This document shows, one piece after another, positions 1 to 40,193 of a stretch of DNA of 40,193 nucleotides; position 1 is the first letter of the stretch; every line of letters begins with the position of its first letter. The stretch is from a virus. Taxonomy: Duplodnaviria > Caudoviricetes. Made by a program: the position numbers and the translations under genes. The stretch covers positions 1 through 40,193 of the IMG/VR virus record IMGVR_UViG_3300012041_000041; one strand, written 5' to 3'. The notes under the pieces were generated by a model that saw nothing but the letters and a program-made list of their open reading frames with translations, did no database searches and was not told the origin of the DNA.

Positions 1-14
1 TACTAAATTATCAA
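1..14. repeat. Terminal direct repeat TACTAAATTATCAA (circular overlap)
   Basis: Identical to 40180-40193; joining the ends gives a continuous reading frame. Confidence 0.9.
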
Positions 15-178
15 TTGCTAGTGGTGCAACATCAGGTTTAGGATTTACAGCAGATAGCGGAACAGAAACGGCATTAAGTGATTATATAAGTGTTGATTGT
101 GATTCAGTAAGCACAACAGCTCCGATAGATGCTTATATAGAGTTATTTATGATGCCATTAAATAATCAATATTTATAA
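1..178 (+). CDS. C-terminal part of the tail fibre that starts at 37790 and wraps the junction
   Basis: Frame starting at position 2 reads TKLSIASGATSG...PLNNQYL* with TAA 176-178 overlapping the next ATG (TAATG); same frame as the ORF open at the window end. Confidence 0.85.
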   Translation, partial: TKLSIASGATSGLGFTADSGTETALSDYISVDCDSVSTTAPIDAYIELFMMPLNNQYL

Positions 179-4636: not shown

Positions 4637-4985
4637 AACTGTTCCAGATTCAATGGTTTGCATAACTCCTAGACAGGATATTTTTTTTATTCAACAAACA
4701 TTCGAAGCAAAGGAATATAAAAACTCCTTTGAGACTAATTCAAATACTATTTACGGATTAGAATTAAAGAATAATTATTTAGAAGGTGTTGTTTTTGAAG
4801 GTAAAAAACAATTAAGTTATTCCAAGCTACAGACAGGCAATTGTATAATTGAAAAGCGATATTACTCAGATAACCTAAACAAAGCCACAACTAAAATAAA
4901 GCTGCTTAAAACAGGATTTAATCTAGTTGTAGCTATTGCAATTGCAGAGGCTGCGTATATTGGAGTTAATTATATGATGCGTTAA
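4548..4985 (+). CDS. Putative second spanin-like component (signal peptide plus C-terminal hydrophobic segment)
   Basis: 89-nt overlap with 4304-4636; no clear lipobox. Confidence 0.4.
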   Translation: MQKRKNVYLFFLLTIVNVYAIQSLGQTVYKTVPDSMVCITPRQDIFFIQQTFEAKEYKNSFETNSNTIYGLELKNNYLEGVVFEGKKQLSYSKLQTGNCIIEKRYYSDNLNKATTKIKLLKTGFNLVVAIAIAEAAYIGVNYMMR

Positions 4986-5191
4986 AACGGACAATCATCA
5001 TTATTTTCAATTTCACACTTATAAGCTAGTGATCTAAGTTTAATAAGTCCGTATTTAGTTTTACCACATAAAATAGAAACGCTACCATTATTGTAAACCT
5101 TTTTTGCTAGTTTCCCCTTATAGAAAAACGTTCCGTATAAGTTGCAATAAAGATCATTTACGCCCTTAAATTTATAAACAGTCTCTTTCAT
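4982..5191 (-). CDS. Hypothetical protein, last gene of the leftward arm
   Basis: ORF track; convergent with the lysis module. Confidence 0.6.
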   Translation of the reverse strand: MKETVYKFKGVNDLYCNLYGTFFYKGKLAKKVYNNGSVSILCGKTKYGLIKLRSLAYKCEIENNDDCPF

Positions 5192-5239
5192 GATAAATCT
5201 AATTAAGTGATTGATAATTAAGCTCCTTGCTTAGCACTA

Positions 5240-5266
5240 AATCGCTTCAATCTACGAGTTACAGGT
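5240..5266 (+). repeat. attC-like half site 1 (right arm only, GTTACAGGT at 5258)
   Basis: GTTACAGGT is the exact complement of ACCTGTAAC at 5998; no left arm found. Confidence 0.5.
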
Positions 5267-5306
5267 AATGTTTTTTGCCACCGCACTCCTAAAACTTTCC
5301 AAGTTT

Positions 5307-5942
5307 TTAAAATAACTGTGTTTGGGCTGTGTGGTCATTTATTCGTTTCATTGCCTTTGTATAGTAGTCGGCATCTATTTCACAAGCTGTCAAATCTAAC
5401 TTATAGTTATGGCAAGCAATAGCAATTGATCCACTGCCTAAATGTGTATCTAATATTTTATCGCCTTCTTTAGCATATTTATTCAATAGCCATTCATAAA
5501 GTTTAACTGGTTTTTGTGTTGGATGAATACTGCCTCCATTTTGAGCAATCAAACCCCTATTCAAATTAACTATTCTTGTTGCTCTTTGGAAACTTGTATA
5601 AGCGATTTCACCATCACTCATACTTAAATCCTCTTGTCCTTTATACCAAAAAATCCAACCCATTGTGCCTTTATTCAAATGCTCTACGAAATAATTTGCA
5701 CCCCATATTATTTGATTTTTACTAACTCTTTCCAGCTCCCTAAAATATTCTGCATTAGGGATTTCATTGTCCCAATATTTATGCTCATGTCCTCTCCTTT
5801 TATGTTTTGGATTTTTAGTGAACGTTTCAGTTTGTCCACTTCTATTTATTCCATACGGAGGATCAACAATAGCTAAATCAAAGTATTTATCAGGGTATCT
5901 AGCCATTAACTGCCTATTGTTTTCATTCGTAATCTGTAACAT
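5307..5942 (-). CDS. DNA methyltransferase, N6-adenine/N4-cytosine beta class (cassette A cargo)
   Basis: DPPY, HPTQKP and ILDTHLGSGS motifs; likely start MLQITN at 5942 because the longer 6008 start lies inside the attC-like site. Confidence 0.9.
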   Translation of the reverse strand: MLQITNENNRQLMARYPDKYFDLAIVDPPYGINRSGQTETFTKNPKHKRRGHEHKYWDNEIPNAEYFRELERVSKNQIIWGANYFVEHLNKGTMGWIFWYKGQEDLSMSDGEIAYTSFQRATRIVNLNRGLIAQNGGSIHPTQKPVKLYEWLLNKYAKEGDKILDTHLGSGSIAIACHNYKLDLTACEIDADYYTKAMKRINDHTAQTQLF

Positions 5943-5997
5943 ATCTTTATTATTAATAATTATTAAATCCCACCGCACTCCACCTAAAAAAACACAT

Positions 5998-6067
5998 ACC
6001 TGTAACATTGGCTAAGGGCAAACCACGTACTTTGTTTTCATGCCCCTAGCCAAGTACCGTTAGCTGC
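5998..6067 (+). repeat. attC-like site 2
   Basis: ACCTGTAAC a TTGGCTA aGGGCA ... TGCCCc TAGCCAA gtacc GTTAGCTGC. Confidence 0.75.
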
Positions 6068-6070
6068 AAT

Positions 6071-6238
6071 TTATTTTTTCTTTTTTGCCACCGCACTCTG
6101 TTGCTTTTTCAAAGCAATTATATCTGTACGTGTTAATCCCATGTATTTTAAAACTGAATCAGGCCATTCAACCGTACATATTGTATGTATAACTGAGTCT
6201 TCTAATGTTTTATGTTTCTTTTTTTTCTCTTTCGTCAT
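6071..6238 (-). CDS. 55-aa hypothetical protein (cassette B), not in ORF track
   Basis: MTKEKKKKHK...QQSAVAKKKK*, overlapping the upstream ORF. Confidence 0.4.
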   Translation of the reverse strand: MTKEKKKKHKTLEDSVIHTICTVEWPDSVLKYMGLTRTDIIALKKQQSAVAKKKK

Positions 6239-6353
6239 AAGAATTATGTATTACTATTATTTCATATTCATCAAATATAACTTGTGGGCAACAATCGCAC
6301 GTAGTATTTTCCTCATGCTCTTTTAAATCTCCTATAGGTAATATGTGTACCAT
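6210..6353 (-). CDS. 47-aa His/Cys-containing hypothetical protein (cassette B), not in ORF track
   Basis: MVHILPIGDLKEHEENTTCDCCPQ...IHNSYDERE; TAATG-coupled to 6353-6613. Confidence 0.6.
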   Translation of the reverse strand: MVHILPIGDLKEHEENTTCDCCPQVIFDEYEIIVIHNSYDEREKKET

Positions 6354-6613
6354 TATTCTGGAATTAAGGCATATTCAATTATATCTTTTATCACATCTAC
6401 GCCTTTCCAATCAACAGTATAGCATCCATACAAAACAACTCTGTCTCCTTCATTAAGCTGGATTTCTTTATTAAACATCATATAAACTGTCTCTTCTTCT
6501 TTATCTAAAATAAAACCAAGTTGTTTGTAATGGTTTTCATATAATTCAAAACATTCTGTTAGGGTTCCGTTATCTAAAAATATTTCTTTATTTATTGTAA
6601 ATTTTGTTTTCAT
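6353..6613 (-). CDS. Hypothetical protein (cassette B)
   Basis: ORF track; AT-rich leader. Confidence 0.65.
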   Translation of the reverse strand: MKTKFTINKEIFLDNGTLTECFELYENHYKQLGFILDKEEETVYMMFNKEIQLNEGDRVVLYGCYTVDWKGVDVIKDIIEYALIPE

Positions 6614-6680
6614 CTTTATAAGTTTAATTATTAATAATAAATCCTGCCCACGCCACCTTAAAAAAGTAAAAATAAACAGA

Positions 6681-6814
6681 CAGCTAACACAAGCTAAGGA
6701 AACATGCGGCTGAATCTCTCCGTCTGAGACTTCATCTTATAGTTTGAGGAGTTTCGCCTTTATGGGAGTTCACCAGTACATGCCGCACGTCTCTTAGCTT
6801 GATACCGTTAGCTT
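6681..6814 (+). repeat. attC-like site 3 (long central loop)
   Basis: CAGCTAAC ac AAGCTAAG gaaac ATGCGGC ... GCCGCAC gtct CTTAGCTT gatacc GTTAGCTT. Confidence 0.8.
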
Positions 6815-7137
6815 CAAGTTTTAAAAATTTTGCCGACCCACAAATACAATTGATATAGTTTTCGTTTTATCGGATTTTTAAAATATTTTCTTGTTGCAAA
6901 TTCCTCTAATGTTCCCGTATATTTTTCTATGCAATAAAGTTTTCCATCTTCATTCATAGCCTTCTTGAAATCAGCAACCGCCTCTAAATAACAAGCGTGT
7001 AAATTATCTGAACGTGATACATTATATCGGCTATGAATTTTACCTTTATACATAATTGTATAGCAAAACCCATTTATCGGAAACCCTCTCCATCCGATTA
7101 CTAAAATTGGGCTATCATATCCTTCTTCTATATTCAT
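6814..7137 (-). CDS. Hypothetical protein (cassette C)
   Basis: ORF fills the space between sites 3 and 4; its stop abuts the site 3 core. Confidence 0.7.
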   Translation of the reverse strand: MNIEEGYDSPILVIGWRGFPINGFCYTIMYKGKIHSRYNVSRSDNLHACYLEAVADFKKAMNEDGKLYCIEKYTGTLEEFATRKYFKNPIKRKLYQLYLWVGKIFKT

Positions 7138-7179
7138 AATTTCGTTTTTTAAAGCCCTCCCTAAAATTTTTAAAACCTA

Positions 7180-7277
7180 AAGCTAACATAGGGTTGGCAA
7201 AATGCCGCTTCAGGTTTGGTGCTAAATATTGAGTTTTCGGTTAGCGGCACTATCGCCAACCCTCAGCCGTTAGCGGT
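7180..7277 (+). repeat. attC-like site 4
   Basis: AAGCTAAC at AGGGTTGGC aaaa TGCCGCT ... AGCGGCA ctatc GCCAACCCT cagcc GTTAGCGGT. Confidence 0.8.
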
Positions 7278-7283
7278 AATATT

Positions 7284-7721
7284 TTAACCCTCCGCGCCTG
7301 TGTGTAACAAACTAGGTGTTTCATAAATATTTCCAATAACAACCATGTCTTCTAAATGGTCTTCATTAATCATGTTTATAGGATATTTCCAATCTTTACC
7401 TATTGCCATAAACCAAAAACAGCCTTTAAAATGCTCTACTTTTCTGTAAATACCATTAAAAATACAATGGAGTATATCACCTTCATAAATCTCTTTTAGA
7501 TTTTTGTCTTTCAATCCAGTATATTGCATCAATTCAAATTCAGCATTATCACAAAATCTACCATCCAAAGGAGCTATTACAATCGTTTTGCCATAATCAA
7601 AATCTTCTGTTGGTGTTGTTCCGTATAAAAACGCTCCATGTCTTTTGAAGCTAATTACATCTATGTCGCACATTTTTTCTTCTGCAATGTGCCATGCTCT
7701 AAACTGTATGTCTCTTTTCAT
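7284..7721 (-). CDS. yopX: YopX family protein (cassette D)
   Basis: IQFRAW, LMQYTGLKDKNLKEIYEGDI and VIGNIYETP motifs. Confidence 0.9.
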   Translation of the reverse strand: MKRDIQFRAWHIAEEKMCDIDVISFKRHGAFLYGTTPTEDFDYGKTIVIAPLDGRFCDNAEFELMQYTGLKDKNLKEIYEGDILHCIFNGIYRKVEHFKGCFWFMAIGKDWKYPINMINEDHLEDMVVIGNIYETPSLLHTGAEG

Positions 7722-7795
7722 TTTCCTTTGGTTAAATGTTTATTCTTTCAATTGCTACTCTTCGTTAAAATACTAACCGCCAACATTGGCTAAAA
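7718..7795. repeat. 78-bp direct repeat, copy 1 (gene leader plus left arm of site 5)
   Basis: 77/78 identical to 8189-8266. Confidence 0.95.
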
Positions 7796-7855
7796 GCAAG
7801 CGCACGTACTAACTGCTTATAATGCGCCAGCTTCTAGCCAAAAACCGTTAGAAAG
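7776..7855 (+). repeat. attC-like site 5
   Basis: ACCGCCAAC a TTGGCTA aAAGC aa GCGCA ... TGCGC ca GCTTc TAGCCAA aaacc GTTAGAAAG. Confidence 0.75.
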
Positions 7856-7943
7856 CAAGTTTGCGCCCTCGCGCCTGTGGGTTTAAAAAAATATGTATTT
7901 ATTGTTTTTGTCAAACTTGCCTTTTAAAAATATTTCCCAATAT

Positions 7944-8192
7944 TTAGATTGTTCGTCCATTGTTTATCCAATATTTATAAGTGTTTGTTTCGTCTTTAAA
8001 AATCCTTATTCTGTACCCCTCATATAGATCATCGCTTCCTTCTACTTTAACTAATCCACCACAATTATAATTCTCCTTTAATGATGTTATATGTGTAGGT
8101 TCTTTATTAAACTTATAGCTTCCTTCGATTATTATTGGAACTCTCAGTTCAAAACAATCCTTTAATTCTTCAAATGTTAATTGTTCGCTCAT
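7944..8192 (-). CDS. Hypothetical protein in the cassette array
   Basis: ORF track; shares its leader with yopX. Confidence 0.65.
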   Translation of the reverse strand: MSEQLTFEELKDCFELRVPIIIEGSYKFNKEPTHITSLKENYNCGGLVKVEGSDDLYEGYRIRIFKDETNTYKYWINNGRTI

Positions 8193-8266
8193 TTTCCTTT
8201 GGTTAAATGTTTATTCTTTCAATTGCTACTCTTCGTTAAAATACTAACCGCTAACATTGGCTAAAA
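8189..8266. repeat. 78-bp direct repeat, copy 2
   Basis: 77/78 identical to 7718-7795. Confidence 0.95.
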
Positions 8267-8272
8267 ACCGTT
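8247..8272 (+). repeat. Internally deleted attC-like site 6
   Basis: ACCGCTAAC aTTGGCTA AAAACC GTT: both ends of site 5 joined at the A-run with no hairpin body. Confidence 0.6.
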
Positions 8273-8306
8273 ATTTCACACTATATTACTTTTAAGGTTT
8301 TCGTTT

Positions 8307-10046
8307 TCAAAAAGGCATGTTGTCATTTACGCTTAAAAAATCAAATGTTTCATTTATTTTTGATTGTGTTTCTGTTTTTTCCAAAGGGTTGTAATTGTAA
8401 AGCATGTACCTATTTGTAGATGTGTCAAACTCAAAATCAATTTCTCCTCCTATACCTACTAATCTTTGGTTCTTTACTTTTTCAAAACAAACTTTTACTG
8501 TTTTATTTAATCTGTCTGTTTTTCTAAATGGTCGCCAAACATATGCTACATTATCCGCCTTGTCAGCAAAAGTACCGCCCCCCTTTATTTTATACGAACT
8601 AGGTTCTGGGAAGTCTTGCCCGTTTACAAATGATGGTGTTACTTGATGTGCTACTAAATGAACAGACGTGTCAGTTTCTAAGGCAAACCTTTTAAGTTGA
8701 CTCATAAACCAACTTACATATTGGTCTATTTGTTTGTTGCCTTGATTATGATCGAATTGATTGTAGGGGTCTAATACAATTCTCTTAACACCTTGTCTAC
8801 GAATCAGATATAGCATTTTGTTTTTAACAGATTCCCATGTGTGATCCTTTTCTGGATAAACATAAAAGAAGTGTTTTTTTACAAATTCCATCCCTTTCTC
8901 ATATTCGCTTTTATTCATCACATTTTTATAAAAACTATCTGTACTTTTCCCAATATACGAATGTATTATATCATCATAAAACTCATCGGCAGGAAACTCT
9001 TCTGGAGAAAATACAGCCGTTTTAACTCCATCGAATTTGGCGTTAATTAACAATAATTGTTTTAAAAACTTACTTTTACCTTCATTCATGTACCCAGTCC
9101 AGATAGTTACTTCACCTGTTCTGTGTGTCCAAATAGTATCGAAATCATTAAAATATGTTGTTTCTCCTCTTCTCTTACCATTATGGAACGTGTAAAGCAT
9201 TGAATCCCTAACATCTTCAAGATTAAACACCCCATCCACCTTAACGTCTATTGCGTTTTTAAAACATTCTTTTAATACTTCTTTACCTTCATAAATTAAA
9301 ACATCGTTTGCATCTTTGTGGTCATTAGGGAAATTTATTATTTTACATTTTTCAGCACCAAAACGTATAATTAATTCTTTCTCTAATCTTTTGCCGTTTG
9401 CATCTTTGTCGACAGCTATGTAAATAGTTTCTGCCTGTTCAAAAACATCATAACAATTTGTTATGCATTCTAATTTTTTATCTACATTTTTATCGTTTTC
9501 ATTTGGCGCACCCTGATTAACTGAAGTTACATTTTTAAATCCAGCTACTTCAAATGCCATAACATCAAATTCCCCCTCACAAATAATAATTTCTTTTTGA
9601 CCTTTTATTTGATCTAAATTATAAACTATTACTTCAGCATCTTTGGTCTGTCTAAAATCTTTGCCATTTAACGCCCTTTTCTTTACGTTTACGAGCATTT
9701 TATCTCTTAGATAAGGAAACACTACCCAGCCGTTCTCTTGTTTGATCTTATGGGCTAAAACAACTTCTTGAGTAATTCCCCGATTTGTGAAAAGTTGAAG
9801 CCCTGAATCTGTTAACTCGGTAAAATTTGTTCTAATTGGTTTTTGAAACATAGGCTTTGCGGCATCCTTAACGCATCCCTTCCACCCGCATTTGTGGCAA
9901 TTGTAAAGCCCTTTGAAGTAGTCAATGGATAAGCACGTGTCTTTTATGTTTGTTTTGCCTATTTTAACGCAGTTAGGGCATGGTAATTTTTGTTGTGCTG
10001 AATTGCCTTTTGGTTCTATTCCGATTTCGTAAAACTTATTTCTCAT
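8307..10046 (-). CDS. Bifunctional primase-helicase (T7 gp4/Twinkle-like)
   Basis: N-terminal zinc finger CPNC...CHKC, TOPRIM ICEGEFD and AVDKDANG, Walker A GYMNEGKS, SF4 motifs LVAH and ADKAD. Confidence 0.92.
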   Translation of the reverse strand: MRNKFYEIGIEPKGNSAQQKLPCPNCVKIGKTNIKDTCLSIDYFKGLYNCHKCGWKGCVKDAAKPMFQKPIRTNFTELTDSGLQLFTNRGITQEVVLAHKIKQENGWVVFPYLRDKMLVNVKKRALNGKDFRQTKDAEVIVYNLDQIKGQKEIIICEGEFDVMAFEVAGFKNVTSVNQGAPNENDKNVDKKLECITNCYDVFEQAETIYIAVDKDANGKRLEKELIIRFGAEKCKIINFPNDHKDANDVLIYEGKEVLKECFKNAIDVKVDGVFNLEDVRDSMLYTFHNGKRRGETTYFNDFDTIWTHRTGEVTIWTGYMNEGKSKFLKQLLLINAKFDGVKTAVFSPEEFPADEFYDDIIHSYIGKSTDSFYKNVMNKSEYEKGMEFVKKHFFYVYPEKDHTWESVKNKMLYLIRRQGVKRIVLDPYNQFDHNQGNKQIDQYVSWFMSQLKRFALETDTSVHLVAHQVTPSFVNGQDFPEPSSYKIKGGGTFADKADNVAYVWRPFRKTDRLNKTVKVCFEKVKNQRLVGIGGEIDFEFDTSTNRYMLYNYNPLEKTETQSKINETFDFLSVNDNMPF

Positions 10047-15380: not shown

Positions 15381-15880
15381 TGAATGAGATTTTAGAGTTT
15401 ATATATAAATCAAAGATCATACTTAATTCTGCAAAGAAGATAACAAACGGGAATGATTTATATGAGGACTTAATATCTGAACTTATAATAATTATATCAG
15501 GAACAAACGAAGGGATTATAAAAGGACTTTACGAACGTGGGGAATTAGAACTATACTGTTATAAGATAATGTATAATCAGTATACTAATCCAAGAAACGA
15601 GTTTTATAAAAAGTACAGGACGTTTGAAACACAGGTAGAGGGTGAAGAAAATATAGAGTCTAACATTGATGAACAGTACTCAGATGTTGTAAAGTTGATG
15701 AAAACCATGTATCGGAACGGGCAACAAGCTGAGATTAGGTTATTGCAATTAAAAGTAAAGTTTAAAACATATAGAGCAGTAGGAAAAGAATTAGGACTAG
15801 CATATAAGACAGTAGAGTACGTAGTTAAAAACATAACAGAACAAATCAGGAAACAATATGATCTTAGTAATAACCGCTAA
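15377..15880 (+). CDS. Sigma factor-like (ECF-like) transcription activator
   Basis: LYEDLISE region-2-like segment and C-terminal HTH TYRAVGKELGLAYKTVEYVVK. Confidence 0.65.
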   Translation: MMNEILEFIYKSKIILNSAKKITNGNDLYEDLISELIIIISGTNEGIIKGLYERGELELYCYKIMYNQYTNPRNEFYKKYRTFETQVEGEENIESNIDEQYSDVVKLMKTMYRNGQQAEIRLLQLKVKFKTYRAVGKELGLAYKTVEYVVKNITEQIRKQYDLSNNR

Positions 15881-16997
15881 TAGAATAACAGGATTACAAT
15901 ATCATAGGCAAATAGTACCCTTTAGGTCGCTAGGATTAGAGGTCGAATATCAACCAACTGAGGAGGGATTAACAGACGACTACCTAAAAAAGTTCAGCAT
16001 AATTTCAGTATTAAGAGATATTAAGTATCCAGAGAAGTATAAAAAGTTAGGTTTAAAGATTCATTTTGATATAGATGATTACTGGGTTTTACCCGTTTCG
16101 CATGGAATGTGCAAGATTTACAAGCAAATGGATTACGCTAATAAAACCATTTACGCATTAAACCAAGCCGATTTCATTACTACTACTACACAATACCTTG
16201 CAGACAAAATACAAAGCGTAATTAAACCGACTCACATTATACCTATTCACGTCTTACCAAACGCAATAGACCCATACTATACTCAGTGGATTCCCTACAA
16301 CTTTGAACCTTCACACGAACGCATGAGGTTTGGATATATCGCAGGGTCTCACCATCAAAAAGATGTAGAGATGTTGCATCCTGAACTAATAGGACTATAC
16401 AACGATAAAACAGTAGAGCATAAATGGCAACTATTAGCAGCTGGTTACAACTTTACACCTAACCAAGATGGAACTGTTACATCAAATCCATACTATAAAT
16501 ACATTGAGAAGCTATTTACTTGCAGGATAACCAATAGTAACGCAGTTAGCTTACTTAAAAAACAATATGCTGAACAGCTTAATAAAGAAATGCTTTGCGA
16601 GTATCGGGATATGGACGAGCCTTATCAAAGGATAAACGGAAAAGACGTTTATAGCTATGGTAAACTTTATGATCTTATAGATGTGTCTATGATACCATTG
16701 GTTAATAATGACTTTAATAGATGCAAATCACAATTAAAACTTATTGAGGCTGGATTTAAAAAGAAAGCATGTTTAGTGTCAGATGTTATCCCTTACTCTT
16801 TAGATAAGACAAAAGATAATGCTATGTATGTAACTGATAAAGAATGGAGAAAAAGCATTAAGTATCTAATAATGAACCCTAACAAGGTCGAGGACTTAAA
16901 AGAATCTATGTATCAGTATGTAAATGAGAGGTATAGAATTGATATAGTTAATAAGGAACGTAAACAGATATTCGAATCATGGCTAAAATTGGGATAG
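15858..16997 (+). CDS. Glycosyltransferase, GT-B fold
   Basis: FDIDDYW, ADFITTTT..LA, VLPNAID, FNRCKSQLKLIEAG, VSDV.PY. Confidence 0.85.
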   Translation: MILVITANRITGLQYHRQIVPFRSLGLEVEYQPTEEGLTDDYLKKFSIISVLRDIKYPEKYKKLGLKIHFDIDDYWVLPVSHGMCKIYKQMDYANKTIYALNQADFITTTTQYLADKIQSVIKPTHIIPIHVLPNAIDPYYTQWIPYNFEPSHERMRFGYIAGSHHQKDVEMLHPELIGLYNDKTVEHKWQLLAAGYNFTPNQDGTVTSNPYYKYIEKLFTCRITNSNAVSLLKKQYAEQLNKEMLCEYRDMDEPYQRINGKDVYSYGKLYDLIDVSMIPLVNNDFNRCKSQLKLIEAGFKKKACLVSDVIPYSLDKTKDNAMYVTDKEWRKSIKYLIMNPNKVEDLKESMYQYVNERYRIDIVNKERKQIFESWLKLG

Positions 16998-17668
16998 GTT
17001 GTACTACATATAATAGGGATGGGATGATTAAGGAGTGGAAGGTGCGAACATTCTGCGAGTCTATTGATTGGGAATATTTTTATCAAACTACTGGGACAAA
17101 AAACCAGTTTGACGGGATAGATAAAAAGGGTAATTTGATTTATGCTTATATAGCAGAAGATACAGACGAAGACAGAAGAGGTATTTCATATCGAAAAAAT
17201 GAATGCTTGAGAGCCTTAAAAGACTGTGATTATATTTTCCTTTTCGATGATGACACATTCCCAATAAAAGAGGGGTGGATTGATTATTTTATAAATAATA
17301 GCGGAGGGTGTCATTTATTATACTTAAACGAAAGCCATAATAAACAGCACTCTCTTATGGATGTTGATGTTTATTCTAATTGTGGAGGAGCTTTTATGTT
17401 TATGACTAGCAAGCATATTAAAAAGGTAGGGGCATTTAACGAGAAGTTTGGTTTATATGGCTTTGAGCATGCTGAATATTCAATGAGAATCAATGGAGCA
17501 AGACGGTTTTATTGCTTAAATAGAACACAGGAATACATATACGCACACGATTACTCAACGCCAAACCACAAAAGCAGCATAACAGACGAAGAAAAACAAA
17601 AGCATATTAAAGAGAGCTGGAACAAGTTCTTTAACGAACCGATTAAACAAATACATATCCCATTATGA
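16979..17668 (+). CDS. Glycosyltransferase, GT-A fold (GT2-like)
   Basis: TTYNR, YIFLFDDD, VGAFNEKFGLYGFEH. Confidence 0.85.
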   Translation: MAKIGIGCTTYNRDGMIKEWKVRTFCESIDWEYFYQTTGTKNQFDGIDKKGNLIYAYIAEDTDEDRRGISYRKNECLRALKDCDYIFLFDDDTFPIKEGWIDYFINNSGGCHLLYLNESHNKQHSLMDVDVYSNCGGAFMFMTSKHIKKVGAFNEKFGLYGFEHAEYSMRINGARRFYCLNRTQEYIYAHDYSTPNHKSSITDEEKQKHIKESWNKFFNEPIKQIHIPL

Positions 17669-17874
17669 AAAACACTTGGCTATTTTACATAGATGATTTT
17701 AAATCCAAAGGAACAAAGAAGTATTTCTTTAGGAATTATAAGATTTATCGTGCATATAAATGGCACATAGCAGAAATGATAGATAAGAACGGATTGCCTT
17801 TTATTTCTTTTTCTAACCCTTCGCCAGGAGAAGAAACCAGAGTTTATACTAATAACGCTAATAGATACTATTAA
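17665..17874 (+). CDS. Hypothetical protein
   Basis: Coupled overlaps. Confidence 0.55.
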   Translation: MKNTWLFYIDDFKSKGTKKYFFRNYKIYRAYKWHIAEMIDKNGLPFISFSNPSPGEETRVYTNNANRYY

Positions 17875-18521
17875 TGAAGATACTCTTTAAATATACTACG
17901 AGGTCAAGACGAACCAACTTTCACAGGGGACTAGACTCAATCGTCAATAACCTAAACGATAAAGACAATTACCATGTTCTTATATCAATTGATAGCGATG
18001 ATAAAACAATGGAGCCGATACCCGTACTTAATTGCAACCATACCTATATGATTGATGATTCTAAATCAAAGGTAGACGCAATCAATAGAGACATAAACGA
18101 ATTTACTTATGACTGGGACATACTTGTAAACTTTAGTGACGATCAAATATTTACCAAACGAGGCTTTGATGATACAATAAGAGAGCAGTTCTATAAAAGT
18201 CCAGATCAGTTTATTCATTTTCCAGATGGTTTCACAGGTGATAGACTAGCAACAATGAGTATAATGGACAGGAAATATTACAACCGTTTCAATTACATAT
18301 ACCATCCAGATTATAAGTCTTTATGGTGTGATAACGAAGCAATGGAAGTAGCAAAGATACTAGGGTGTTATAGTTACGTAGATCAAGACATCTTTAAACA
18401 TCTTCACCCAGTTTGGATTGGAAACCATGCGGATGATGCACAATACAGACATACTGAATCTTATCACCCAGTAGACAATGCAACTTATTTAAGACGTAAA
18501 CAAAACAACTTTGATCTATAA
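17874..18521 (+). CDS. Glycosyltransferase, GT-A fold
   Basis: TRSR, IDSDD, KVDAINRD, NFSDD, SLWCDNE, HLHP. Confidence 0.8.
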   Translation: MKILFKYTTRSRRTNFHRGLDSIVNNLNDKDNYHVLISIDSDDKTMEPIPVLNCNHTYMIDDSKSKVDAINRDINEFTYDWDILVNFSDDQIFTKRGFDDTIREQFYKSPDQFIHFPDGFTGDRLATMSIMDRKYYNRFNYIYHPDYKSLWCDNEAMEVAKILGCYSYVDQDIFKHLHPVWIGNHADDAQYRHTESYHPVDNATYLRRKQNNFDL

Positions 18522-18524
18522 AAC

Positions 18525-19106
18525 ATGCTATTAAGTATACTTATACCCACTTTAGAATCAAGACAGGATAAATACCTATCCTTAGTAGATAACATATTAG
18601 ATCAGGTCGAGAAAGGTTATACCAACTTAGTTGAGGTCATACCAATGGCAGACAAAGGAGAAAAGCCAACGGGTCAAAAGCGTAACGAACTAATCGACAT
18701 GGCTAAAGGTGAATACATTTGCTTCGTAGATGATGATGATGAACTGGCTAAAAACTATATTGATTTAGTAATGGAGGGAATTAAACAGAATATTGATTGC
18801 TGCTCTTTACGTGGTGTTATGACATGGGACGGGTTAAACCCTCAAGTGTTTGAGCATAGCATAAGATACAACGCCTACGCTACAAACACAAATTACCATC
18901 CAGACCCTAACCGTATTATCTACGAACGTTACCCAAACCACTTAAACGTAGTAAAGAAGTCAATAGCGGAGCAAGTCAGGTTTAGAGAGATATTCCAAGG
19001 CGAAGATACATTGTGGGCGAATGAAATACATCAACGTGGTTTAATTAAGTCAGAGCATTACATAGATCAGGTATTATATCACTATAAATTCATAACAAAG
19101 AAATGA
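18525..19106 (+). CDS. Glycosyltransferase family 2
   Basis: LSILIPT, GQKRN, GEYICFVDDDD, GED..W. Confidence 0.88.
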   Translation: MLLSILIPTLESRQDKYLSLVDNILDQVEKGYTNLVEVIPMADKGEKPTGQKRNELIDMAKGEYICFVDDDDELAKNYIDLVMEGIKQNIDCCSLRGVMTWDGLNPQVFEHSIRYNAYATNTNYHPDPNRIIYERYPNHLNVVKKSIAEQVRFREIFQGEDTLWANEIHQRGLIKSEHYIDQVLYHYKFITKK

Positions 19107-19348
19107 GCAAAGGAACTGTTACGATCTCGCTAGAAGAGTACGAGCAAATAATTAGAATTAATAGGGCTATAAGAGATATGAAGTCTTTTTTTTCTTACAC
19201 TAGTAGCTGTATGGTTTATGTCCCAGATAGTAAAGACGATGTTAATGCTATGTTTTTTGATAAAATAAACACAATGCAAGAAACCATTAACAATCTAAGA
19301 TCAGAATTAAATATAGTTCAACCTAAAAAGAAATGGTATCAAGCATGA
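19103..19348 (+). CDS. Hypothetical protein
   Basis: ATGA overlaps; VTISLEEY N-terminus. Confidence 0.6.
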   Translation: MSKGTVTISLEEYEQIIRINRAIRDMKSFFSYTSSCMVYVPDSKDDVNAMFFDKINTMQETINNLRSELNIVQPKKKWYQA

Positions 19349-20583
19349 AATTATCACTCTTAATCTGTACAGTAGAAGAACGCAAAGAACAATTTGAAGC
19401 CCTTAAAGCTAAACTATCTAAGATGATAGAAGGTTATGGAGGCATTGAGATTATATCCGATTGCTCACCTCGTTATGATGAACCTGGTGGATTAACAGTA
19501 GGAGAAAAAAGACAGCTACTAATTGATCTTGCAGACGGTAAATATATTTGCTTTGTTGATGATGATGATGATGTTACCGATAACTTCATTAAAGAACTAC
19601 ACCCATTATTAAGTCAGGATGTTGACGTTATCAATGCAAAGGTATGTGCATATATTAACGGAAACAAACACATCATAGATCAATCAATATACTACGAGAA
19701 CGAACAATTACACGAAGGTGAAACAAAACGTTACCCGTCTGTTATGTCTGTATGGTCTAGAGCCTTAACAAAGAAAGTAAGATTCAAACCTATGAATTGT
19801 GGTGAGGACTTCGACTGGACTAAGCAAATGAATCCACAAAGTGAGATTAAAGTTTATACTACATGGCAAATCTATAACTACTCGGACGAACATACCATTG
19901 CTAGTAAGTCACCTAAAAGATGTATCGTAACCTTTTCAAATACAGAACGGTATAACAGACTTGCAGAACGGTTAAAGGAAACGGCTAAACCTTTTGGCTA
20001 TGACTTCATTCACTTCAAAACATTTGACGAAATAAATTGCAGAGAACACAGTCAGCACCCGTATGCGTTTAAGCCTTATGCAATACATAAATGTAGGGAC
20101 TTAGGATATAACTCTATACTTTGGATTGACTCAGCTATCTATTTAACTCAAGACCCTATTAAAGTATTCCAATACATTGAAAGGAACGGGTACATGCTAT
20201 TCGATAACATAGGGCATAACATGGGAACTTATACTAATGATGATTGCTTAAGCCACTTTAATATAAGTAGGTCAGACTCTTTTAATATTAAAATGGTAAT
20301 GGCTTGTTCAATGGGTTTTAACTTCCACAATAAAGAAGCTACAAAGGTTTTCGAGGAGTGGATGGGCAAGGCTTACTCGACAGCATTTCAGGGAGCGCAT
20401 GAACAAATTGGATGGGATGGAAAAACAAAAGGACATCGACACGATCAGTCGGCTATTTCTTGCATAGCTCACAATAAAAGTTTATCTTTGATACACCCAA
20501 GTGAAACATTTATAGTTTACAATTCATGGTCTCAAAGCGAGATGCCACGAGCAGAAACAGTATGTATGATTTCAGCAGGATAA
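19345..20583 (+). CDS. Two-domain glycosyltransferase (GT2 plus second GT-A-like domain)
   Basis: N-domain GKYICFVDDDD and GEDFDW; C-domain FKPYAI, ILWIDS, HRHDQS; start at the ATGA overlap. Confidence 0.8.
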   Translation: MKLSLLICTVEERKEQFEALKAKLSKMIEGYGGIEIISDCSPRYDEPGGLTVGEKRQLLIDLADGKYICFVDDDDDVTDNFIKELHPLLSQDVDVINAKVCAYINGNKHIIDQSIYYENEQLHEGETKRYPSVMSVWSRALTKKVRFKPMNCGEDFDWTKQMNPQSEIKVYTTWQIYNYSDEHTIASKSPKRCIVTFSNTERYNRLAERLKETAKPFGYDFIHFKTFDEINCREHSQHPYAFKPYAIHKCRDLGYNSILWIDSAIYLTQDPIKVFQYIERNGYMLFDNIGHNMGTYTNDDCLSHFNISRSDSFNIKMVMACSMGFNFHNKEATKVFEEWMGKAYSTAFQGAHEQIGWDGKTKGHRHDQSAISCIAHNKSLSLIHPSETFIVYNSWSQSEMPRAETVCMISAG

Positions 20584-20676
20584 TATGGAAAACGATGTAT
20601 ATTTATTAGTGTTAATATGTACGGCAATACTTTCATGGAAATTAGGCGCTTTAATAAGATATATAAAGGATAATTA

Positions 20677-21285
20677 ATGGAAAAGATTTACCCAACATAC
20701 AGCACCCAAGAAGTATTTGAAAGTACCTACTCAATGGTTAAAGACATAACCCTAGATGGTGCAATAGTAGAATGTGGAATAGCAGCAGGTTCTAACTTTG
20801 CTCAAATGATTAAGGCCTCAATAGATTCTGGAATTGATAGAGCGTATTGGGGTTACGATTCATTCGAGGGCATTCCCTACGGCATAGCACTTGACGAACA
20901 GCAACCTGGTATAGGTGCAATGGATGCAACCAAATACGGTGTATTACAGTCCACAGGAATAACAGCACATAACATAAGCGGAGTAATACAAAACTTAGAG
21001 AAGTGGGGTGTAAATAACGAACGGGTTAAATTAGTAAAGGGATGGTTTCAAGACACATTGCCAAACTACAAACCAGATAAGATTGCAGTCCTTAGACTAG
21101 ACGGCGACCTTTACGAATCAACAAAGGTTTGTTTAGAACATTTATACTCTAAGGTTCAAAAGGGTGGTTTAATAATAATAGACGACTACGAACTCGCAGG
21201 ATGCAAAAAGGCAGTAGACGACTTTATTAAGTTTAGAAAGGTTAAGTTAAAAAGATTTGAATACATAGCTTACTGGTATAAATGA
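20677..21285 (+). CDS. TylF/MycF-family sugar O-methyltransferase
   Basis: VECG..AG, YDSFEG.P, VKGWFQDTLP, LRLDGDLYEST, IDDY. Confidence 0.9.
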   Translation: MEKIYPTYSTQEVFESTYSMVKDITLDGAIVECGIAAGSNFAQMIKASIDSGIDRAYWGYDSFEGIPYGIALDEQQPGIGAMDATKYGVLQSTGITAHNISGVIQNLEKWGVNNERVKLVKGWFQDTLPNYKPDKIAVLRLDGDLYESTKVCLEHLYSKVQKGGLIIIDDYELAGCKKAVDDFIKFRKVKLKRFEYIAYWYK

Positions 21286-37789: not shown

Positions 37790-40193
37790 ATGAATATTTA
37801 CATAGATAGTCAGATAGTAGTACAAACGGGGGCTCAATGGGCTTTAGATTCTACTGTTTATAGTGGGCAACGATTATTAGTTACATCGGACGAAACTTAT
37901 ACAGGAACAGATCAAAGAAAATTTAAGATTGCAAACGGTGTAGACACGTGGAGTAATTTAGATTATTTTCCAGCGGGCGGTAGCCAGACGCTCGCACAAA
38001 CACTAGCATTAGGGAAACTAACAAACGAGCAAACTATTGATTCCAATAATGGGTTATCGAAATTAAGTGTTCTAGACGGGTCTGCAAAACTAGAAAGTTC
38101 TAGTGGTAATTTTGTGCTTATTAACCGATCAACAAACGAGATAACAATAGCGGCGTCAAATCGTGTTTTAGTTGGTCATAATTCTGCAACTCACTATCTG
38201 AATGTAAATGCGAGTCTTTTTGAAATTGGTGCGACTACTAGGGTGGCTATTCAAGACACAGCCGGAACATATTCAATGGCTTCTTATGCTCCAGACAGCA
38301 CTTTTATGTTCGGACAGGTAGGTGGTTCATTCCCAACCGTAGACGCAGCTATTCATATTATACACAGCGCAAAAGATCAATTTAAAAGCTCTTATAACAG
38401 TACTCAATACTGGAAAGCAGTAACAAACAATATAGGAGAAACAACATTCACAACGGCAGGATCTAGCCCTTTATTAAAGTTTAATTCAATAGTTAATTTT
38501 CCAAACTTAACGGCATCTACATTGCCATATCTAGACGCTTCTAAAAATCTAGTTTCTTTAGCAAACGCATCAGGAGTTTTAACAAATGACGGTGCAGGAA
38601 ATTTAAGTTGGGGCTCAGGTGGCGGTGGTGCATCGGCAATGGGTAACACAGGAGCTTTAACTTATGGTGGTATGACTGCTGCAAGTACAACTACTGTAAA
38701 TATTGGAGCATTAAAAGGGTGGGTAGTAGATAACGAAACTGATCCATTAAATCCCGTTTCAACGTATATTGATTATCCGGGAGCAAGTGGAGTAACAGTT
38801 CCTACAATTGGTAGTGGTCAGATAAGTTATTTATTATTTCTTCCTGACGGTGGTGGGTCAGCTACTTTAGTTTGGCAGAATACATTTCCAACATCGGCAC
38901 AAAGAAAAACACATATTTACGCTTCTAAAGCATCGCATCCAAACTTAACAACATTGGGTGTGGTTGGAAATGAAACGGATTATATTACAAGCCCTTTACA
39001 ATTTTCAAGAGATTTCTTTCAAGGATTTCCATATATAAACAAAGGTATTCATACATCAGCCTCCGCTGCAAATTTAACATTTGCAACATCTACTGGAAAG
39101 ATTATTGGAGACGGGATTAATTTCTATTTAGATAGAACTAATCCAAATGAGATTTCAAGAACAGGAACTTCTACAACTTCATTCTTTTACAGAACTCAAT
39201 TAGGTGGTGCTACTGGAGCAGTAACAAATATTGATCCTACAATGTATGATGTAGGTGGTGTTATAACAGCAATACCCGGAGGCGTTAACGTTTCTACTAT
39301 TCAATATATTTATGCAGTACCTTTTAATGGAGCTATTGGGTTTGTTACACAATATGGCCAAACATTATATTCAAATTTAGCAGCAGCTACGGCAGCAGTT
39401 GGTAAAGAAGAGCCTGTAATATTTTCTAACTTAGTTAGTGATGCAATTTTAGTTGGATACTTAGCTATTAGAAAAGGTGCAGCTGACTTAACAGATACAA
39501 CTCAGGCTAGATTTTCTAAAGCTGATATGTTTGGACAATCAGCTGGTGGAGCAGGTGGCACATCTGTAAGTACAATACAGCAAGTTTATACTAACTCTGG
39601 TGCAGTTACTCCTAAATTTACAACAACTACTGCCAATGATGGTTGGTCAGGTAGAAATGGTGGAACATCTGATACTGAAAAGATATTTAGAGCAGAAGAT
39701 ATTGCAGGAACTGAAAGATGGTATGTAAATGGACATGGTGACACTAATTATTGGAAAGGAGTAGCAGGAACACCAACACGAGTAGGGAATACATCTTTCA
39801 CAATTACAGATACTGCTAATGCTAATTTGTACGATTTAAAATATGGTAGAACAACTGTATTAAAATGGACTGATACGGCTGTTACTAAAATGGCTATGAT
39901 TGTTAGTGCTACTTATTCAGCTAATAATGTAACTATTACAATTATAGGCGACACATTAACGGCAACGGCAACAATGAGTACAATGAGTTATTCTCATGAG
40001 AAATGTAAACCAATAATTTTAGCTATTGCAGGAACATTGTCAACAGGAACAGATTTAACAGGTAGATACTTTTGCCCTTCTCCTATGAAGGTTTTCGGTG
40101 CAGATGGTTATCACATGACAGCTGGAACAACCAACGCGACTACATACGATATAAATAAAAACGGTACTACGTTTATGACTACTAAATTATCAA
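37790..40193 (+). CDS. Long tail fibre/receptor-binding protein (855 aa when joined to 15-178), not in ORF track
   Basis: ATG 37790; KFKIANGVDTWSNLDY (Mtd/hyaluronidase N-terminal-like anchor), GVLTNDGAGNLSW; Thr/Gly/Ser-rich; start and end segments are in one frame (interior only partly translated by hand). Confidence 0.8.
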   Translation, partial: MNIYIDSQIVVQTGAQWALDSTVYSGQRLLVTSDETYTGTDQRKFKIANGVDTWSNLDYFPAGGSQTLAQTLALGKLTNEQTIDSNNGLSKLSVLDGSAKLESSSGNFVLINRSTNEITIAASNRVLVGHNSATHYLNVNASLFEIGATTRVAIQDTAGTYSMASYAPDSTFMFGQVGGSFPTVDAAIHIIHSAKDQFKSSYNSTQYWKAVTNNIGETTFTTAGSSPLLKFNSIVNFPNLTASTLPYLDASKNLVSLANASGVLTNDGAGNLSWGSGGGGASAMGNTGALTYGGMTAASTTTVNIGALKGWVVDNETDPLNPVSTYIDYPGASGVTVPTIGSGQISYLLFLPDGGGSATLVWQNTFPTSAQRKTHIYASKASHPNLTTLGVVGNETDYITSPLQFSRDFFQGFPYINKGIHTSASAANLTFATSTGKIIGDGINFYLDRTNPNEISRTGTSTTSFFYRTQLGGATGAVTNIDPTMYDVGGVITAIPGGVNVSTIQYIYAVPFNGAIGFVTQYGQTLYSNLAAATAAVGKEEPVIFSNLVSDAILVGYLAIRKGAADLTDTTQARFSKADMFGQSAGGAGGTSVSTIQQVYTNSGAVTPKFTTTTANDGWSGRNGGTSDTEKIFRAEDIAGTERWYVNGHGDTNYWKGVAGTPTRVGNTSFTITDTANANLYDLKYGRTTVLKWTDTAVTKMAMIVSATYSANNVTITIIGDTLTATATMSTMSYSHEKCKPIILAIAGTLSTGTDLTGRYFCPSPMKVFGADGYHMTAGTTNATTYDINKNGTTFMTTKLS
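40180..40193. repeat. Terminal direct repeat (copy of 1-14)
   Basis: Exact 14-nt match. Confidence 0.9.

Follow-up and report, generated by a model that had tools for sequence, protein, structure and literature searches.

How can a phage carry an array of gene cassettes of the integron type and encode no recognizable enzyme that could move them? The question is raised by IMG/VR virus record IMGVR_UViG_3300012041_000041, a Caudoviricetes genome of 40,193 nt that was analyzed over its whole length (hereafter the window), in which hairpins between positions 5258 and 8272 alternate with small genes. An earlier note on this DNA had read the region as a platform of shufflable cassettes that recombine at G/TT and borrow an IntI- or Xer-like host recombinase in trans. 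The platform itself is supported by the chain of core sequences, by variants among metagenome contigs, and by cassette swaps in cultured Lillamyvirus phages, and we are highly confident that the cassettes are real and mobile. The array works like integron cassettes but departs from them in the integrase, in the extra-helical bases, and in the polarity of its genes. Our reading, to which we assign a probability of about 0.8, is that the array is cut by a short tyrosine recombinase that is missing from the phage and acts in trans, the source of the enzyme probably being a Bacteroidota host or a co-resident phage. The features of the region are as follows (ORF, open reading frame).

5249..5268, plus strand: attI-like head site, simple, without a hairpin; crossover G5258
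5258..6058: cassette 1, 801 bp, N6/N4 DNA methyltransferase and site 1
5307..5942, minus strand: orphan N6/N4 DNA methyltransferase gene (PF01555, E 1e-15; phrog_67, E 2e-38)
5998..6067, plus strand: site 1, attC-like hairpin without extra-helical base; crossover G6059
6059..6806: cassette 2, 748 bp, three small minus-strand ORFs and site 2
6071..6238, 6210..6353 (= phrog_2864) and 6353..6613, minus strand: ORFs of cassette 2
6681..6814, plus strand: site 2, long attC-like hairpin; crossover G6807; bottom-strand z-score -4.4
6807..7268: cassette 3, 462 bp, ORF of 107 amino acids of unknown family (6814..7137, minus strand) and site 3
7180..7277, plus strand: site 3, attC-like hairpin; crossover G7269
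7269..7846: cassette 4, 578 bp, YopX-family phage gene (7284..7721, minus strand) and site 4
7776..7855, plus strand: site 4, attC-like hairpin; crossover G7847
7847..8269: unit 5, ORF of 82 amino acids of unknown family (7944..8192, minus strand)
8189..8272, plus strand: array tail, a 78-nt copy of 7718..7795 leading into a collapsed site 4; G at 8270
8307..10046, minus strand: primase-helicase gene, upstream neighbor of the array on the cassette-gene strand (context, outside the array)

The four hairpins and the partial sites at 5258 and 8247 lie where the earlier note had placed them, as judged from the sequence, from a site detector (TAAC/CAAC-stem-CGTT with an ungapped stem, and hence unsuitable for extra-helical bases), and from folding. 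At the stricter threshold the genome contains no such sites besides the four hairpins, and a block-shuffled copy contains none; a looser first scan gave two extra weak minus-strand matches elsewhere in the genome. All four sites have inverted AAC and GTT cores, with left cores TAAC/CAAC at 6003, 6685, 7184 and 7781 and outer bases that vary more than the RRRY of the attC cores RYYYAAC and GTTRRRY. DNA fold z-scores of the hairpins range from -1.9 to -4.4, and no fold was obtained for the two partial sites. Across all sequences compared, the detector reported 552 sites in 268 sequences (4 in the window) compared with 5 after block shuffling, a total that is not a prevalence because many of the loci were retrieved with a pattern for such sites; the median site length is approximately 122 nt. 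A narrow pattern built from sites 1 and 4 was abandoned, as it retrieved only 2 viral loci.

The earlier note had the hairpins separating small accessory genes. The units are indeed bounded by the sites, although cassette 2 holds three small ORFs and not one. The cargo of the array consists of the orphan methyltransferase, the YopX-family gene (PF09643, E 2e-22; phrog_98), and five ORFs of unknown family, among which the 107-residue ORF of cassette 3 yielded only a Pfam match below the cut-off. An atlas search with an 86-residue ORF produced no usable match. The methyltransferase gene has 74% DNA identity with Flavobacterium phage 11b; its start probably lies at 5942, the longest ORF beginning at 6008 within the hairpin. 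A C-rich motif of the CCACCGCAC type occurs close to both cassette ends (5271..5288, 5963..5980 and 6081..6098) and was rejected as a general feature of the sites, being found at 8 of 285 viral sites.

The signature that distinguishes recombining cassettes from mere hairpins is the pairing of cores across genes. As the earlier note had observed, the outer bases of each left core pair with the preceding right core across the gene, at 6, 5, 5 and 5 of six positions compared with 2, 4, 4 and 1 within the same site. Because a window with four sites is too small, the significance of this match rests on relatives. Among adjacent viral sites, the six bases beyond GTT equal the next left core at all six positions in 118 of 191 pairs and at five or more in 138 of 191, whereas perfect matches within a site were found in 4 of 300 cases and random pairs matched at five or more positions in 6%. 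Bacterial arrays behave in the same manner, with perfect matches across the gene in 62 of 89 adjacent pairs and within the site in 16 of 183. Sites re-formed from matched cores are predicted to be 1.8–7.8 kcal/mol more stable. Unit 5 breaks the rule, as its left core at 8247 mismatches GTTAGAAAG, a departure which the earlier note does not mention; it is likely an older or chimeric cassette with mismatched cores. Outside the part that pairs across genes, the eleventh base (counting the crossover G as the first) is a conserved A, found at 93% of the viral sites and 96% of the bacterial ones, and a contact with the enzyme is possible.

With strand orientation assigned by the bulge and not by energy, the bottom strand folds more stably at 3 of the 4 sites of the window, at 260 of 296 sites from viruses and at 143 of 178 from bacteria, and G-T wobbles favor the bottom strand by 231 to 61 in the viral set. 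Genes run antisense to their sites in all 3 pairs of the window and in 185 of 191 pairs from viruses; the 89 bacterial pairs divide into 54 sense, 28 antisense and 7 without an ORF. Of 120 well-matched viral cassettes, 63 have a longest ORF that begins inside the hairpin of the same cassette. No counterpart of the integron Pc promoter was recognized, the genes pointing toward the head and a sigma-70 scan remaining at chance level.

Precise gains and losses of cassettes were seen both in contigs nearly identical to the window and in cultured phages. The earlier note had proposed to look in related phages for breakpoints exactly at the core, and breakpoints of this kind were found in both collections. 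We aligned contigs of eight sequencing runs (X1–X8) on the region, nearly all of them at least 99% identical to the window. The seven runs covering more than half of the region are metagenomes of freshwater sediment or groundwater, and no RNA run was found among the listed runs that contain the phage. One X3 contig skips exactly 5258..6058, the 801-nt methyltransferase cassette, joining 5257 to 6059 in such a way that only GTTA fits both sides. Cassette 1 has reduced depth in X3 and X4 and nearly no cover in X5, and contigs break at 5261 and 6059. At site 2, identical foreign letters follow position 6810 in four of the eight runs (X3, X4, X5 and X8), with approximately 1245 extra nt in one X4 contig; X1, X2 and X7 bridge the site without an insertion, and X6 has no cover there. 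Contig pieces of cassette 2 extend from 6056 or 6059 to 6810 in X3, X4 and X5, and foreign hairpin arms stand before 5258 and 7842 in X4 and before 6056 and 6803 in X5. These variants show precise events and not the dates of the events.

Lillamyvirus provides the cultured counterpart. In isolate lillamy9-1 the cores of 13 sites form a nearly perfect chain, and neither the annotation nor tblastn reveals a recombinase. Six pairwise comparisons among nine isolates, which are 99.2–100% identical in shared blocks, revealed five distinct gains, losses or swaps in the array at or within a few bases of C/GTTA, together with one small difference inside a loop and three breakpoints outside the array. 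A 439-bp cassette from the middle of the lillamy9-1 array recurs with 100% identity in lillamy9-7, where it occupies the head site, as expected from excision and re-insertion at attI. Comparison of 72 viral loci gave 25 points at which shared DNA ends, and 13 of these are no more than 12 nt away from a G/TT crossover, compared with 3.6% expected; two of the 13 are duplicate loci.

A methyltransferase cassette, gp14 of hemulen6-1 (L372:1658-2500), was observed in hemulen and sniff isolates and not in lillamy, morran or stinky isolates. In PMC7077304 a methyltransferase is linked to plating efficiency, with lillamy and morran isolates, which lack the cassette according to Table S13, among the poor platers on host LMO6; gp14 may be the methyltransferase concerned. 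The terms used to search the available text of PMC7077304 retrieved no passage on the array.

If the cassettes move, what moves them? The genome appears complete, as the earlier note had supposed (CheckV completeness 100%; IMG/VR class "linear", with a 14-nt overlap between the two ends). The same note had recognized no tyrosine or serine recombinase in it, and this absence was upheld in every search. Pfam and PHROG scans of 67 ORFs returned no recombinase, the only recombination genes matched being ERF and NinG; a six-frame search of the genome with PF00589 and PF00239 gave no match, with positive controls in 14 of 14 and 12 of 14 genomes; and tblastn of the genome with the array-associated recombinases described below gave none. 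The closest relatives of the primase-helicase and the methyltransferase are those of Tenacibaculum and Flavobacterium phages, the cultured relatives being Bacteroidota phages, and the best terminase matches are to Bacteroides phages at 38%. A Bacteroidota host therefore appears likely.

In a scan of 80 loci from prokaryotic genomes, mostly Bacteroidota with some other bins, arrays of the same sites directly follow a tyrosine recombinase, the two being joined by a simple TATA-rich head, and the GTT of this head matches the left core of the first cassette (part of the head-site comparison rests on ten rows). The adjacency to tyrosine recombinases for which the earlier note had proposed to look is thus found in Bacteroidota. 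When 20 further loci were picked by the enzyme alone, sites were found downstream and on the same strand in 17 of them (78 sites in 158 kb), and neither upstream (140 kb) nor on the other strand was there a single site. The gap between recombinase and array is approximately 70–250 nt and runs through the conserved head site. By eye, 6 of the 9 bases before GTT at the window head agree with the TATATACAA/GTT-type heads beside the short recombinases, and contig joints and loose ends coincide with the head site at 5258. Position 5258 can be regarded as an attI-type head in that it does not fold, in that conserved heads adjoin the recombinases, and in that a cassette has moved to the head in lillamy9-7.

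The enzyme beside these arrays is not an integron integrase. IntI is a tyrosine recombinase with an insertion of ~35 residues near patch III (PMC4889954); the short enzyme lacks both the IntI1 insertion (~31 residues) and a second short loop, the insertion being absent in all 8 array enzymes aligned, and no IntI is encoded in the window. All 7 short enzymes scored fall under the TIGR02249 cut-off, and they fall below the XerC and XerD cut-offs as well. Of 121 Flavobacteriaceae genomes 94 contain the short enzyme, as do 58 of 101 genomes of Flavobacterium. Phages also encode it: a homologue lies within the locus in 6 of 61 viral loci with at least two sites, and several phages have the enzyme at the head of their own array. 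Viral loci with a close, near-full-length homologue have an array in 6 of 6 cases (two overlap other loci) compared with 1 of 23 loci with distant integrases.

Plasmids gave a few further observations. Chryseobacterium plasmid L510:5995-11800 carries a short recombinase, a head site and five sites. The genes tet(X3) and tet(X5) each have a recombinase of the TnpF type immediately upstream (L508:5139-7160 and L509:4516-6537), a homologue of the short enzyme at 44%; we make no claim of a link to tet(X), as no site was detected on the two TnpF plasmids. A plasmid search with a bacterial site gave no match, and a plasmid search with IntI1 returned IntI1 copies only.

One alternative is that the array is an ordinary CALIN (cluster of attC sites lacking an integron integrase), whose canonical attC sites recombine through a true IntI supplied in trans by the host. 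With four attC-like sites within 1.9 kb and no recombinase the array does qualify as a CALIN, though its sites are non-canonical. Such clusters are known from virulent phages: Qi et al. 2023 (PMC9892861) reported 17 CALINs in 10,705 phages, including Polaribacter phage P12002L, and recombined five of six phage sites with IntI1. Window sites and attC sites have the AAC...GTT cores and the bottom-strand bias in common, and a sample of 251 genomes of the phylum includes 77 with true IntI. The structure of the sites argues otherwise. Extra-helical bases close to the L box are a feature of attC sites (PMC5027507). Between +6 and +11 an extra base, most often C at +9, is found in 59 of 60 sites beside true IntI but in 1 of 86 beside the short enzyme, in 13 of 339 viral sites and in 0 of 15 in lillamy9-1. 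These bases were scored with a gap-tolerant detector, a strict canonical pattern having failed to recover sites next to true IntI. As the gap-tolerant detector did not pick up either of the two attC sites of R388, the set of true-IntI sites served as the positive control. In the window, none of the four sites has an extra-helical base at +9, and site 2 has one extra G at +11. The window sites are not canonical attC sites because they have no extra-helical base near +9 and their genes lie on the opposite strand. The loci with true IntI (L488–L507) contain sites resembling the Vibrio cholerae repeats (VCR), with up to three extra bases.

The distribution of IntI speaks against the same alternative, with no true IntI in 101 Flavobacterium or 121 Flavobacteriaceae genomes, yet Flavobacterium phages shuffle such cassettes. 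Among the published sites P12002L_attC1 bears, by eye, the closest resemblance to sites 1 and 4, apart from an additional A in the left arm; it is the one that failed with IntI1, while P12002L_attC2 worked (PMC9892861). Our detector finds six sites of the window type in P12002L; two sites of that phage, approximately 190 nt long (L069:39518-39710 and 40761-40949), have loops that could hold most of a small gene. An ordinary CALIN served by IntI is in our judgment improbable, and the candidate enzyme is not IntI because IntI is absent from both genome sets and the sites adjoin a distinct short tyrosine recombinase.

The host XerC/XerD pair could instead be hijacked on folded single strands in the style of CTX phage, with the short recombinase a bystander. 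This would explain activity in hosts without the short enzyme; all 3 Flavobacteriaceae genomes tested contain XerC/D-like genes, and recombination of a folded single strand by XerC/XerD has a precedent (PMC7790495). A bystander, however, would not be expected at such a regular position, 70–250 nt ahead of the array and never behind it, nor at the array head in several phages. In a quick tree, moreover, short enzymes and IntI stand apart from XerC/D with support 99 (six XerC/D-like proteins from three genomes), which makes this explanation very improbable. The same tree nests IntI among the short enzymes with support of 84–92 at a point where long branches meet; 11 intended rows (7 phage short enzymes and 4 other phage integrases) were left out of it, and with support this weak the nesting may be taken as a lead only. 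The earlier suggestion of an IntI- or Xer-like host enzyme in trans is supported in placing the enzyme outside the genome but was too loose in naming it, as the sites adjoin a short recombinase that is neither IntI nor XerC/D.

It is also conceivable that no site-specific enzyme is involved, the hairpins being RNA signals such as terminators or processing sites and the genes being swapped at repeats by homologous recombination with the phage ERF and NinG. Both proteins are encoded in the genome, and the array tail resembles the product of homology-driven events: positions 7718..7795 are repeated at 8189..8266 with 99% identity, a 78-nt direct repeat that spans the start codon region, the leader and the left arm of site 4, and in the collapsed site at the tail the left arm is fused to ACCGTT, with the loop and right arm gone. 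We consider that this repeat and the collapsed site were probably made by homologous recombination. As an account of the array as a whole, this explanation is highly improbable: the junctions share only 4–7 bases, the match of cores across genes would be meaningless for RNA folding, and no site has a terminator-like or Rfam match. (Rfam was run on 4900..8500 and gave two weak microRNA matches off the sites; a promoter and terminator scan was at chance level.) Least credible is a frozen relic captured from an ancestor with its own recombinase, since, even though some phages carry the enzyme at the array head, the window head matches the consensus at 6 of 9 bases only, and unit 5 is decayed, contigs at least 99% alike elsewhere differ by precise cassettes at four positions and the complete relatives L007 and L028 have different cassette sets and no PF00589.

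Several observations weigh against, or qualify the evidence for, an array cut in trans by the short tyrosine recombinase. Random pairings of cores within the window reach five of six matches a quarter of the time, and 12 of the 25 homology ends in viral loci lie away from G/TT. Taken alone, the X3 skip is weak and was flagged as such, since only one contig of depth 2.2 shows it and the shorter side of the joint spans 26 letters. No circular cassette joint was found in the contigs of the eight runs, contigs being prone to drop rare forms, and the contig variants may represent co-existing strains that diverged earlier instead of ongoing switching. A second force, homologous recombination, is indicated by unit 5 and by the 78-nt repeat. 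The association of enzyme and site has exceptions: 3 of the 20 loci picked by the enzyme have no site, phages Freya and Ingeline and two tet(X) plasmids encode close homologues with no site in the stretches examined, and the same query left 27 of 121 Flavobacteriaceae and 43 of 101 Flavobacterium genomes without the enzyme. The frequency of true IntI in the phylum sample was contrary to our expectation. IntI1 still recombines some attC sites without extra-helical bases (PMC5027507), and it recombined one of the two Polaribacter phage sites (PMC9892861).

With these points weighed, recombination by the short enzyme in trans suggests the following scenario. During phage replication the bottom strand would fold into hairpins, and the short recombinase would cut the folded single strands at G/TT. 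A cassette would leave as a circle, its site re-forming from the matched cores, and circles could be inserted again either at the head (5258) or at sites within the array. The antisense genes would be read through from the leftward replication operon of the primase, and new head cassettes would therefore come last in the transcript, the reverse of the order in integrons. Methyltransferase cassettes may serve to tune escape from host restriction.

How does such a system relate to those already known? The defining features of integrons and attC sites were taken from PMC7790495, PMC5027507, PMC8618304 and bioRxiv 2022.02.06.479319. Like integrons, and especially sedentary chromosomal ones with VCR-type sites, the arrays have AAC...GTT cores, G/TT crossover, and chimeric sites matched across genes, as well as a bottom-strand folding bias, a simple head site by a tyrosine recombinase, and re-insertion at the head. 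Unlike integrons, they are associated with an enzyme that lacks the IntI insertion and falls below TIGR02249, their sites lack extra-helical bases, and their phage genes are antisense; in chromosomal short-enzyme arrays the enzyme is mostly on the array strand, a further difference. The array resembles the phage CALINs in being a cluster of attC-like sites without an integrase, often found with DNA methyltransferases (PMC9892861). The CALIN paper treats the sites as IntI substrates, and the text of it available to us names no cognate enzyme and reports no natural shuffling, unlike the present case with 13 sites in one cultured phage and natural gains and losses. In Riemerella anatipestifer, also a member of Bacteroidota, a homology-independent, site-specific uptake of a gene with a 27-bp leader and a 140-bp attC-like stem-loop has been described (PMC13148043). 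The length of that hairpin may be compared with our median of ~122 nt; the enzyme is not named there. As in the CTX-type XerC/XerD elements, a phage would borrow a host tyrosine recombinase acting on a folded single strand (PMC7790495); unlike there, single genes move within an array instead of a whole phage into dif, and the linked enzyme is not XerC/D.

The earlier note was unsure whether such arrays had been described. Clusters of attC sites without an integrase are in print for virulent phages (PMC9892861), whereas the variant with the short enzyme was not found; a literature search that missed most subscription journals yielded no published description of a short-enzyme cassette system. 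In PMC4889954, 21 recombinases without the IntI domain near attC sites were dismissed.

Elsewhere in the genome, five glycosyltransferase-like genes and a TylF-type methyltransferase stand in a row ahead of the terminase genes (15858..21285), possibly for glycosylation of the virion or the DNA. An ORF of at least 801 codons (37790..40193) runs off the end of the window and likely resumes at 1..177 across the 14-nt overlap; it is probably a tail protein. The small ORF beyond the head of the array (4982..5191) has no homologue in the loci compared and is unrelated to the Lillamyvirus gene at the same position.

These results lead us to speculate, more tentatively than for the array itself, that Bacteroidota and their phages may share a second widespread class of integron, defined by a recombinase without the I2 insertion and by hairpins without extra-helical bases. 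It might represent a pre-I2 state within which IntI is nested, and lytic phages might hijack the host enzyme during infection to reshuffle host-range methyltransferase cassettes. An enzyme that lacks a domain thought to be essential for integrons heads cassette arrays (it is present in 94 of 121 Flavobacteriaceae genomes, with sites at 17 of 20 loci). The structure of the sites tracks the enzyme almost perfectly (59 of 60 compared with 1 of 86), and the origin of single-strand recombination thereby becomes testable with natural enzymes. Lillamyvirus is a cultured test system for this purpose, in which one methyltransferase is a cassette, and the cassette array offers a precise mechanism for phage mosaicism.

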